Shown here: positions 27,501-30,500 of the stretch, piece after piece
Layout: each line of letters starts with the position of its first letter
Position numbering within the stretch: position 1 is the first letter of the stretch
Assembly: GCF_006345805.1 (NCBI RefSeq)
Contig: NC_042999.1
Location: 151,590,001-151,654,000, forward strand
Origin: Octopus sinensis
Taxonomy: Eukaryota
DNA: 64,000 nucleotides
Direction: 5' to 3'
Position numbers: made by a program

Positions 27501-30500
27501 GAAACCCAGCCTGGTTAGACAGTACGTCCGGCCCTTGTACCGCACCAGCTGATATCGCCATAGTTTGTCGCTCACATGGAGCTGCAAGTATGCCGATCTC
27601 AAGTCGACAATCGTCGCTGCCTCAGTCGACTGTCTCCACTTGCGTAATGCCTCACCACAAACGTCTGTCGCCTCACCTCCCGTGTGACACGATATGTGCT
27701 GGTTTAGCTCCCTGAAGTCCAGCACCGGTCTGACTTTTCCCTTCGTAGGCTGCACCACCGCCATCAGGGGTTGCACTCCGCCCGCTACCTCCTCCTTCCA
27801 AGGGACAAGGACCCCTTCCTCGATCCACCTCTCCACCTCGTCTTCAAACTCAACCCTGGCGTGGCCTTTCAGAGTATGCTGGTAACAGCTCACCCTGTTC
27901 TCCAGTGTCGGGGGCTCGTCCTTCCATTTCCACTCTATCGTACACCGCTGACCATCGAACGCCGCCTGAAAGTCTTTGTCCTCGATGGTGTAAGCGGCGC
28001 AGTCCCTCGCGGGGCTCTGCTCCCTCTGGTGATCCTGACTCGCAGTGCACGATGCCCCCACGCTTCCGAACGTAACCTTATTTTCCACAACGCTGACGCC
28101 ACCGAGACAGTTGATGGCGTCCATCCCCATCACCACATCAACTCCATTTATCAGGCGTTCGGCCACAATTGCCTGTAGCCTTAGCGTCGCGCCGCGCACC
28201 ACTATCTCTACCGTGCTGCCGCCTCTGCAACGGTTTTCGCTGCCGTCGACCGCCCGGACACTACACACCCCGTTCCATTCCTTCGTCACCCTCGAAGTCA
28301 CCAGGGTGGTCGTACAGCCCGTATCCACGAAGGCCTTGAACGTCTCCCCCTCGGCCTCCACGTCAATCACTGGCAGTGTCTCCAATAGCGCCTCTACTCG
28401 TTTGAGGGGAAAGTTCGAGAGGCAGCAACTTCCCCGCGGTCGTTTCCCTGGCCGCAATCACGGGCAATGTGCCCTGTCTGCCTGCATCGATAGCAAACGG
28501 GCCCCGGCTGCGTACAGTCCCGCGCCATGTGCGGTCCCTGGCATTTAAAACATCGTCCTGAGAACGGCCGCTCTCGTTGCACGGTGGGCTTCCGTACCTC
28601 TTTCTCGGGACGTCGTCCGTCTTTACGCGCCTCCGTCACCGCCATCGCTATCCCCTTCCGCCCCGAGTGTCTCGTCAACCCGCGAGCATGAGTTACAAGC
28701 TCGCTCAATGGCATCTTTTTGACCCCGGGCAGTCGTTGTAGGTGAATCCCTACATCATCGGGGAACCCATTTACGAATGCCAGTCGGGCTGCTCTCTCCA
28801 GTCCTTCTCCGGCAAACCCGGCCAGAGTCGCTAGCCTTCTAGCTTCCGATGCAAAATCATCCACCTGGCCTCCCGTCCACCTGATTGTACTCAGCCTGAT
28901 TTTCTGAATCCAGGCCACTACATCGCCTTCGCCGTTAAAAGGTCTGACGACGTCACTGGCGATCCTAATTTTTGCCGACATCGTGTTGAAAAAAAATGTG
29001 AACGCTGACTAATTGCCGAAATAGCTTGTGGTTGATGAAAGGAGCACAACGGAACAAGGAAATAGGAAAACAGAAGTGCAATAAGGTCTTACCTGACAGG
29101 GGATGAAGTCGGATGGCCTTCAGCCAACTTGCTCGCGTGTTGTCGTCTCGGTGCCTTGCTGGGGTCTGTCTCAGCCGGTCGATGCCGCACGTGCGTTGGG
29201 TCTGTCCCTTCCGCTTCCGCCGGCGCATGCGACCTGCAAGACCTGTAAGCATCACTTCCGCTCCCGCCCGTCCCGTCACACTCCTTCATCACCACACCAC
29301 AAAAACACATCCGACTCCTGGGTGCTGTGAAAACAAAAAGACAAAACGAATTGAGCCAGGCTTAAATCAAAAGTTATGTCTCGCAGCATCAAACGGCCTC
29401 TGGAATGTTGTAAGTTTACAAGAATTTTCCGGAAAATATGTGTTGGAATTAGGGGTTGGTATTCGTGTAGGATTGGAATGTATGCAAGGGTATTATATGT
29501 GTAGGTTGTTTATTGGAGTATGGTGAGTGTACTTGGCAGTTGTCTGAACGCTTGAAGCTATATTAGGACGCATATGTGTTTATGTATTCGTGTGTGCCTG
29601 TTTTGGTTAAGCTATTTGCTAAGTTCCCAAAGTCTGATGAGGAGAGAGCTGAAATTCCACACTCCTCAAGACCCTGGAACTCCCAAATCAGAGTCCCACA
29701 ACCGGATGCAGTTAAAAGTCATACACAAGACATACGCACCACACACACAACCACACAGCTGGTTGTTGATGAATTTTTGCACTTTGTAAGGTTAGTTGGA
29801 TCTTTTCGGTTTGACCGGCAGTTTTTTAAAATAATTTCCACATAACTAAACACTTTTAAACTTCGTATACTGGTAGAATGTGTTTATAAAACATCTCTTT
29901 CTCTTGGCTTTATTGAGAAAATTCTATAGTTTGTAAGATATCTGTTGTTGTTTTTTCTTCAATTTCTGCAATTTCAACCAATCAATTACGTCTACTGAGG
30001 TGAAAACATTCTGTGCCGTATGAATATGTCCCTCGTTTAAGAAACAGATTGGATTATTTACATTTCTGAAGAAAAAGATACCCCTCCCCCACCCCTAACC
30101 CTAACCCTAACCAACGCTAACTCTATCCCTAACCCTAAAACAGATTGAAATGCAATAGATCGATACTAGGGTTATAATTATGGGTGACAATTTCATTATG
30201 ACACCGCTAGAAAAAAACTGCCGTTCAACCCGAAAAGATCCAAAAGATGTTTTATAAACACATTCTACCAGTATACGAAGTTTAAAATTTTTTAGTTACC
30301 TAGAAATTATGTTAAAAACTGCCGTTCAAACCGAAAAGATCTAATAAAGATATTATTATTAATAAATAATAATAATATAAGTGGTTAGCAAGCATAAAAA
30401 CCCCAAAGGTAGATCTATAAATTTATAATTATAATTATAATTAGGGTACCAGATAGTACCAGCTTTGCTAGAAATAAGAGTCGAAAAAATCTCGAATAAG

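Follow-up and report, generated by a model that had tools for sequence, protein, structure and literature searches.

We analysed a stretch of 64,000 nucleotides (nt) of the Octopus sinensis genome (NCBI RefSeq assembly GCF_006345805.1, contig NC_042999.1, positions 151,590,001 to 151,654,000 of the forward strand), here called the window, in which a long terminal repeat (LTR) retrotransposon lies on the minus strand. Directly after its 5' LTR the element carries a 12-nt block that is the exact complement of the first 12 nt of tRNA-Phe(GAA), and this block, a candidate primer-binding site for the 5' end of a tRNA, is the subject of the present analysis. The parts of the element, in coordinates of the window, are:

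25216 to 29301, minus strand: whole LTR retrotransposon, 4,086 bp, delimited by a direct-repeat search and by BLAST of the element against the window
29302 to 29306, no strand: target-site duplication beside the 5' LTR, AAAAC on the plus strand
29027 to 29301, minus strand: 5' LTR, 275 bp, starting TGTGG and ending CCACA, with 274 of 275 bases the same as in the 3' LTR
28982 to 29026, minus strand: leader of 45 nt between the 5' LTR and the gag start codon, without TGG and without a significant fold
29015 to 29026, minus strand: candidate primer-binding site, 12 nt, exact complement of tRNA-Phe(GAA) nt 1-12
28394 to 28981, minus strand: gag open reading frame (ORF), 195 codons, open, with two CCHC zinc knuckles
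25527 to 28457, minus strand: pol ORF, 976 codons, open, with 0 stops and 0 frameshifts
25491 to 25526, minus strand: gap of 36 nt from the pol stop to the 3' LTR, the place where a polypurine tract is expected
25216 to 25490, minus strand: 3' LTR, 275 bp, starting TGTGG and ending CCACA, found by the direct-repeat search
25211 to 25215, no strand: target-site duplication beside the 3' LTR, AAAAC on the plus strand

The element has the general hallmarks of an LTR retrotransposon, with direct LTRs, TG..CA ends and a short target duplication, here 5 bp (AAAAC on the plus strand) outside both LTRs. BLAST aligned the LTR pair with 99.636% identity over 275 nt and one mismatch, and a BLAST search with the whole element found no second copy and no solo LTR within the window. 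Judging from the near-identical LTRs the insertion is recent, and a pair sharing 274 of 275 bases indicates that this copy was produced recently by a functioning replication cycle. With both gag and pol open, the element is apparently coding-competent. Its GC content is 0.51-0.57, compared to 0.31-0.41 in the surrounding DNA.

The 12-nt block reads GCCGAAATAGCT on the plus strand (29015-29026) and AGCTATTTCGGC on the element strand (minus, from 29026 to 29015), and it adjoins the 5' LTR, which runs from 29301 to 29027 and ends ...CCACA at 29027, without any spacer. A 12-mer directly after the 5' LTR and lacking a TGG start was the observation from which the original prediction set out, and the coordinates, the junction and the 45-nt leader all agree with it. 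We found no TGG in the 45-nt leader or in the last LTR bases, and a conventional primer site for a tRNA 3' end (CCA) was ruled out by the lack of TGG in the leader. The RNA of U5 and the leader folded no better than its shuffles (z = -0.77), and there were no Rfam matches in the window. The 12-mer has one exact match in the window, where simple arithmetic gives an expectation of about 0.008 in 128,000 positions, and 7 matches at up to two mismatches versus 2.59 expected. Four of the six two-mismatch matches sit in a tandem array at 38704-39492, which looks like chance.

That these 12 letters correspond to nt 1-12 of tRNA-Phe(GAA) in human and Drosophila had been proposed, and printed primers, templates and probes bear it out. 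In the text available from four papers, human tRNA-Phe(GAA) primer, template and fragment sequences open with 12 letters complementary to the site (PMC10505166, PMC11706605, PMC2175372, PMC12025293), and in the available text of two others Drosophila northern probes for the 5' part of tRNA-Phe end with the complement of the same 12 letters (PMC7038984, PMC6542536). Since the fly and human starts agree, the start of the host tRNA-Phe is likely identical to both. The complementarity ends on both sides of the block: after 12 letters the last base of the LTR, an A, opposes a C of the tRNA, and at the other side there is no tRNA past nt 1. It is the first 12 letters of tRNA-Phe that form the pairing region, not the anticodon stem-loop or another internal stretch. 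By standard numbering, we take this span to run from the acceptor stem, of which it holds the 5' strand, over nt 8-9 into the D-stem, of which it holds the first three bases, with nt 12 lying inside the D-stem.

The site also contains TTTCGGCA, which is the 3' end of a human tRNA-Phe template as printed in the text available from PMC11706605. From this identity it had been suggested that the site could displace the 3' acceptor strand of the tRNA, and the match itself holds. The first seven letters of TTTCGGCA are, however, implied by acceptor-stem pairing, the eighth being the discriminator base, and the match is a consequence of acceptor-stem complementarity that brings no separate evidence for displacement.

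A site of 12 nt that lacks TGG and adjoins the LTR is close to what is known from Tf1, whose primer of 11 nt is released by an RNase H cut, and we therefore considered self-priming of the Tf1/sushi type, in which the 5' end of the transcript would fold onto the site and be cut. Such a mechanism calls for a complement of the site within the LTR. For the first 25 bases of the leader, the 275-nt LTR offered no Watson-Crick complement longer than 5 nt, and 500 shuffled LTRs mostly gave a longest complement of 5 (194) or 6 (218). Between LTR and 12-mer, the most stable RNA duplex reached -9.6 kcal/mol versus a shuffled mean of -10.6 (standard deviation 1.5), and a perfect 12-bp duplex would reach -18.7 kcal/mol. 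By length and by duplex energy the LTR offers no better complement of the site than shuffled sequence does, in agreement with the earlier failure to see one, and self-priming of the Tf1 type was rejected. Self-priming also gives no reason for the match to a tRNA start, for the identity of the block across pol sequences that are 50% diverged or for the switching between tRNAs described below, and we consider it highly improbable.

To follow the block into related elements, we used the fact that proteins starting upstream of the gag Met translate their own leader. Gag proteins were collected by a HMMER search of representatives and by a region search with P0107, a shared-word gag search having given one protein, and the scan for conservation covered the 282 proteins from these searches and from the search with pol described below. 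The gag Met was taken as the last Met before the motif, and several of the proteins classed as extended in this way merely have long N-termini. The gag N-terminus was visible in 76 of the 282 proteins, and 21 of these 76 had at least 10 residues upstream of the presumed gag Met. Seven of the 21 contained a tetrapeptide that translates the 12-mer, KLFR in P0103, P0104, P0125 and P0126 and AISA in P0094, P0099 and P0220. P0125 duplicates P0104, and the seven carriers represent six distinct N-termini, or lineages. The third frame of the 12-mer reads SYFG and is the element's own, with a stop two codons further on. The three tetrapeptides occurred 7 times in 555 upstream residues, compared to 3 times in the 167,038 residues elsewhere.

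In gag, the carriers share 40-67% identity among themselves and 31-38% with the element; in pol, they share 50-53% with it. The residues before the block vary among them (N-Y, N-N, Q-Q, S-E and K-L), as do those after it (Q-T, Q-F, P-S, I, S and V), and with flanking residues that differ between lineages the conserved unit is the 12-mer itself. The codon that precedes the block is usually compatible with a terminal CA. What gives the peptide evidence its weight is that three frames converge on one 12-mer at one place. The proposed check for conservation of the 12-mer among Pol homologues thus had a positive outcome, with the block kept at about 50% pol identity between variable flanks.

We also looked at whether the block changes together with the tRNA. 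Besides the seven carriers, three of the 21 extended proteins (P0206, P0228 and P0195) have a tetrapeptide that departs from the pattern at one residue. P0206 reads T-T-S-Y-P-G, in the same frame and with the same T-T as the T-T-S-Y-F-G of the element, and the complement of the tRNA-Lys,3 start given in the available text of PMC2175372 translates to SYPG. At the protein level, the P0206 site fits nt 1-12 of tRNA-Lys(UUU). A scan of contigs from prokaryotic genomes gave two, L001 and L002, that encode relatives with 41-43% pol identity. Both had been deposited in bacterial metagenome-assembled genomes titled Granulosicoccaceae and Pseudomonadota, and they are probably eukaryotic contamination of bacterial bins. 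L001 does not contain the 5' end of its element and is hence uninformative on the site. In L002, gag homology starts at an ATG near position 756, and the 14 bases before it are ACA AGCTAGCCGG T. The LTR-like CA is followed by the complement of CCGGCTAGCT, which is nt 3-12 of tRNA-Lys(CUU) as printed in the text available from PMC12140204. The register is that of the Octopus element, with the 3' end of the primer at tRNA nt 12, and the gag ATG follows the LTR end after only 11 nt. The expectation of co-variation with the tRNA was in this way borne out twice, by a peptide for Lys-UUU and by DNA, with 10 of 12 bases, for Lys-CUU. These sequences show a site that is conserved and yet switches among tRNAs (Phe, Lys-UUU and Lys-CUU), with all variants ending at nt 12.

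Given these relatives, it is very improbable that the block is a chance match or a functionless relic, for example an antisense fragment that was captured from a tRNA gene, with conventional priming at a site that we missed. The element is present as a single copy in the window, and its gag, although free of stops and frameshifts, lacks roughly 55-60 internal residues that related gag proteins have, through a single in-frame deletion; both features would suit a relic. An exact 12-mer at a fixed position is nevertheless expected at about 6e-8 per tRNA start by arithmetic, the block is kept in six independent lineages with variable flanks, the leader is without TGG, and LTRs with 274 of 275 bases identical speak for a replication cycle that was working recently.

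The position against the LTR, the lack of any other candidate site, the bounds at nt 1 and nt 12 and the switches between tRNAs are together consistent with a site that binds a host tRNA by its 5' end for priming. We consider it probable that this element primes its minus strand with nt 1-12 of a host tRNA, in this case tRNA-Phe, which would be cut in the D-stem and pair with the complementary 12-nt site. The anatomy of the element, the complementarity, the conservation and the switching of tRNAs in one register are direct observations. Priming by a 5' fragment of tRNA-Phe, the central claim of the original prediction, is thus supported at the level of sequence, from which we infer the primer role, the cut after nt 12 and the nuclease.

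In the mechanism that we propose, the CCHC nucleocapsid part of Gag would open the acceptor stem and anneal tRNA nt 1-12 to the element RNA. The 3'-OH after tRNA nt 12 would then be made either by the RNase H of the element, acting at the end of an RNA-RNA duplex as that of Tf1 does, or by a host nuclease, while a 5' tRNA fragment that had been cut beforehand and was then trimmed could take the place of a cut after annealing. The reverse transcriptase (RT) would extend the 12-nt RNA into U5, and plus-strand synthesis would finally run off the primer by copying it to its natural 5' end. Copying to the physical 5' end of the tRNA would explain why the site is 12 nt long and bounded at nt 1, and no modified base would be needed to block it.

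Cleavage could also come first throughout, with a pre-existing host 5' tRNA fragment, cut before annealing, serving as the primer. Fragments of this kind are a known class of small RNA in the text available from PMC7472051, and no new activity of the element would be required. The sizes quoted in the available text of PMC7515703 are, however, 16-35 nt, which exceeds 12, and a longer piece would leave an unpaired 3' tail that could not be extended without trimming. Sequence cannot tell this explanation from a cut made after annealing, and we hold a pre-cut fragment to be quite unlikely.

The block might also bind a tRNA 5' end or fragment for a purpose other than priming, such as packaging, dimerisation, translational control or as a target of host 5' tRNA fragments, with another primer starting the minus strand. 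Conservation and tRNA complementarity alone do not show priming, and the Ty1 and Ty3 bipartite sites described in the text available from PMC5371799 contact the primer tRNA outside the classical site. The location of the block argues for priming instead: in both the element and L002 it adjoins the terminal CA without a spacer, and a primer-binding site is defined by just this position, since the base copied first becomes the LTR end. Furthermore, the 45-nt leader shows no alternative, having neither TGG nor an LTR complement, and the 11 nt between the LTR end and the gag ATG of L002 leave no space for another site. A non-priming role therefore appears unlikely to us, and priming by tRNA nt 1-12 is the explanation that we carry forward.

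Several points weigh against it. We know of no nuclease that cuts tRNA between nt 12 and 13, and the 12-bp duplex (-18.7 kcal/mol) must compete with the folded tRNA. ARAGORN found no tRNA genes in the window that would give the start of the host tRNA-Phe. Owing to its gag deletion, this copy may depend on the proteins of other copies, and since its LTRs are nearly identical nonetheless, it may have been produced with proteins from such copies. A clean polypurine tract was not found by direct reading of the 36 nt before the 3' LTR (25491-25526, minus strand), which hold just a short G-rich run, containing two C, beside the LTR; without a clear tract, plus-strand priming in this lineage may be unusual too.

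The relatives add further reservations. Only two junctions, those of the element and of L002, were read as DNA, and L002 is a decayed copy with its gag frame interrupted at least once. It pairs at 10 of 12 bases, the positions facing nt 1-2 being unpaired and overlapping the start-codon region. The peptides are consistent with the 12-mer yet leave some of its bases unfixed. P0094 implies GA, not CA, at the LTR end, and P0228 (SYRG) and P0195 (AIAA) fit the Lys-UUU and Phe starts only with one base changed and were left unassigned. No such peptide was found in 11 of the 21 extended proteins (P0043, P0060, P0092, P0097, P0098, P0114, P0123, P0132, P0136, P0147 and P0157). All 11 are Met-initial, and their starts may lie downstream of the site. 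Of these, P0060 has 54 upstream residues and P0098 has 34, in both cases without the block, and the two either have long leaders or speak against a conserved site.

The proteins that would carry out these steps are encoded by gag and pol. Within and between the two ORFs we could place the following features:

28394 to 28457, minus strand: gag/pol overlap, 64 nt, with pol in the -1 frame, by direct reading
28113 to 28367, minus strand: aspartic protease domain, pol residues 31-115 (PF13975, E = 6.4e-5, under the curated cut-off; DDI1 protease match)
27345 to 27896, minus strand: RT core, pol residues about 188-371, with a YIDD motif (matches to the RT chains of MLV, HIV-2 and foamy virus)
27039 to 27212, minus strand: DUF7047 (PF23088), pol residues 416-473, the lineage marker (E = 8.7e-23)
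26769 to 26903, minus strand: RNase H of cellular/retroviral type, matched part pol residues 519-563 (PF13456, E = 2.2e-6)
26073 to 26525, minus strand: integrase zinc-binding domain and catalytic core, pol residues 645-795 (Pfam; best solved matches the betaretroviral integrase chains 5cz2, 3jca and 7usf)

In the gag/pol overlap, GGGAAAC stands in the gag frame as a canonical slippery heptamer (X XXY YYZ), and the overlap is a candidate for programmed frameshifting and not a break in the coding sequence. Among the matches listed, gag and pol form a single fused frame in many relatives, with proteins of 1,150-1,240 residues. The fusion in many relatives and the heptamer-bearing overlap in this element suggest that the lineage employs two expression strategies. 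An alignment of 20 relatives has 181 columns without variation, and pol departs from them at 4 of these, inside the range of 0-10 that the relatives themselves give when left out one at a time. Its domains follow the order protease, RT, DUF7047, RNase H and integrase. DUF7047 in this way lies between the RT and an RNase H of the cellular/retroviral type (PF13456/PF00075), with the integrase after it, and it occupies the position of the retroviral connection region. At E <= 0.01, Pfam RVT_1 was not reported for the element pol, while it is precomputed for most of the relatives listed.

When 8,000 candidates were scored in a search with pol, 667 proteins reached E <= 1e-5. The best 120 of the 667 are 48-64% identical to the element pol and lie mostly on contigs of about 4 kb. 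Named hosts among the relatives listed are Argonauta hians, Petrolisthes manimaculis, Oratosquilla oratoria and Plakobranchus ocellatus. The relatives listed carry PF23088 (DUF7047), the RNase H among the matches listed is PF13456 or PF00075, and the gypsy-type RNase H families PF17917 and PF17919 are absent from the relatives listed. Atlas places pol with two arthropod-dominated DUF7047 clusters, in which DUF7047 is found in 96-100% of members. The best sequence matches in the PDB were retroviral whether we searched with the single protein or with a 21-sequence profile, and comprised integrase, with betaretroviral chains first, and RT. Against the betaretroviral integrase chains (5cz2, 3jca and 7usf), E was 4.5e-9 for the protein alone and 6.3e-16 with the profile. 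The word DUF7047 was not found in the literature searched, which was largely open access and excluded supplements.

These data point to an unnamed Pol lineage with a gypsy-like gene order and a retrovirus-like Pol, assigned here by domains and matches, which appears to be widespread among aquatic invertebrates. Whether this whole mollusc and crustacean lineage primes from tRNA nt 1-12 (Phe, Lys-UUU and Lys-CUU), as a fourth mode in which the length of the binding site would be set by the tRNA 5' terminus instead of a modified base and the RNase H of the lineage would cut the D-stem, is in our estimate an even question.

The DNA around the element is rich in TG, TA, ATGT and GATA microsatellites. 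A 181-nt direct repeat flanks the element (24243-24423 and 30758-30938, 97% identical, 6,515 bp apart), and the element may be nested in another repeat-bounded unit or lie between two copies of a short interspersed repeat. Elsewhere in the window, the array at 38704-39492 consists of four tandem units of about 183 nt that are 74-88% alike, with a dispersed 150-nt relative 18 kb off at 20556-20705. The stretches 15621-16492 and 20732-21643, about 5 kb apart, share three repeats of 69, 200 and 128 nt in collinear order and with 82-87% identity, which suggests two old copies of one interspersed element.

LTR elements rely on a particular host RNA at few points of their replication, and minus-strand priming is one of these. 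If our proposal is true, the 3' CCA end would be no requirement for tRNA priming, and 5' tRNA fragments or an activity that cleaves the D-stem would gain a role in retroelement replication. It would also explain why tools that search only for complements of tRNA 3' ends report no primer site in the DUF7047 lineage. Elements of this kind would moreover be beyond the reach of the defence by 3' tRNA fragments that is aimed at conventional sites (text available from PMC7472051). The finding also brings into view a large Pol lineage, as yet without a name, that has its nearest solved relatives among retroviruses.

Neither a site matching the 5' end of a tRNA nor the DUF7047 lineage was described in the literature searched. 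The publications that contained the 12-mer in either orientation did so, in the text available from them, only in tRNA primers, probes and fragment lists, and the available text of the BEL/Pao survey PMC3118150 contains neither the word PBS nor the word tRNA. An earlier description could exist, for instance in the supplementary element tables of mollusc or crustacean transposon surveys. Taken together, our results point to an undescribed way of starting reverse transcription.

The closest parallels to this arrangement come from the known priming modes. In the text available from two reviews of the subject, these are priming from the native tRNA 3' end (Ty1, Ty3 and retroviruses), from a 3' end in the anticodon region of initiator tRNA-Met (copia and Ty5) and self-priming (Tf1), the last being independent of tRNA (PMC5371799, PMC5445492), while the available text of the latter mentions fungal GalEa elements with a hairpin instead of a primer site and also quotes a GalEa site of the conventional TGG type, metazoan GalEa being an example of 3'-end priming. 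With Tf1/sushi elements, the Octopus element would share a primer of a dozen nt without a CCA end, a site that adjoins the LTR, the need for endonucleolytic cleavage where an RNA-RNA duplex ends and a primer that can be copied to its own 5' end. It differs in that the complement of the site is found in host tRNAs and not in the element's own LTR, and in that its pol is without the gypsy-type RNase H families.

With copia and Ty5 the likeness is that the primer is the 5' part of a host tRNA with an internally cleaved 3' end instead of CCA, as the text available from PMC5371799 describes for those elements and as we propose here. Those elements, however, belong to the Ty1/copia group and pair with the anticodon stem-loop of initiator tRNA-Met, whereas the present site pairs with nt 1-12 of tRNA-Phe or tRNA-Lys, implies a cut in the D-stem and belongs to an element with the order protease, RT, RNase H and integrase.

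With conventional 3'-end priming, the element would have in common that a host tRNA supplies the primer, that the site directly follows the 5' LTR and that lineages switch tRNAs. Retroviruses use tRNA-Phe and tRNA-Lys too, through their 3' ends. Switching of tRNA-Lys in 3'-end-primed elements is reported in the text available from PMC7472051. Conventional sites, however, start with TGG and pair with the 3' end of the tRNA including CCA, whereas the site of this element has no TGG start and its pairing partner is the other end of the tRNA.

The Pol protein presents a similarly mixed picture. The nearest solved RT and integrase chains are retroviral and the RNase H is of the PF13456/PF00075 type, as in retroviruses, but at 4,086 bp in all the element has no env and, with 36 nt from the pol stop to the 3' LTR, no room for one; the named hosts of its relatives are molluscs and crustaceans, and DUF7047 stands between RT and RNase H. 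The order of protease, RT, RNase H and integrase is shared with Ty3/gypsy elements (Metaviridae), but the gypsy-type RNase H (RT_RNaseH, RT_RNaseH_2) is replaced by PF13456. As far as its sequence allows us to judge, the arrangement shares traits with all three known priming modes and has the defining feature of none.

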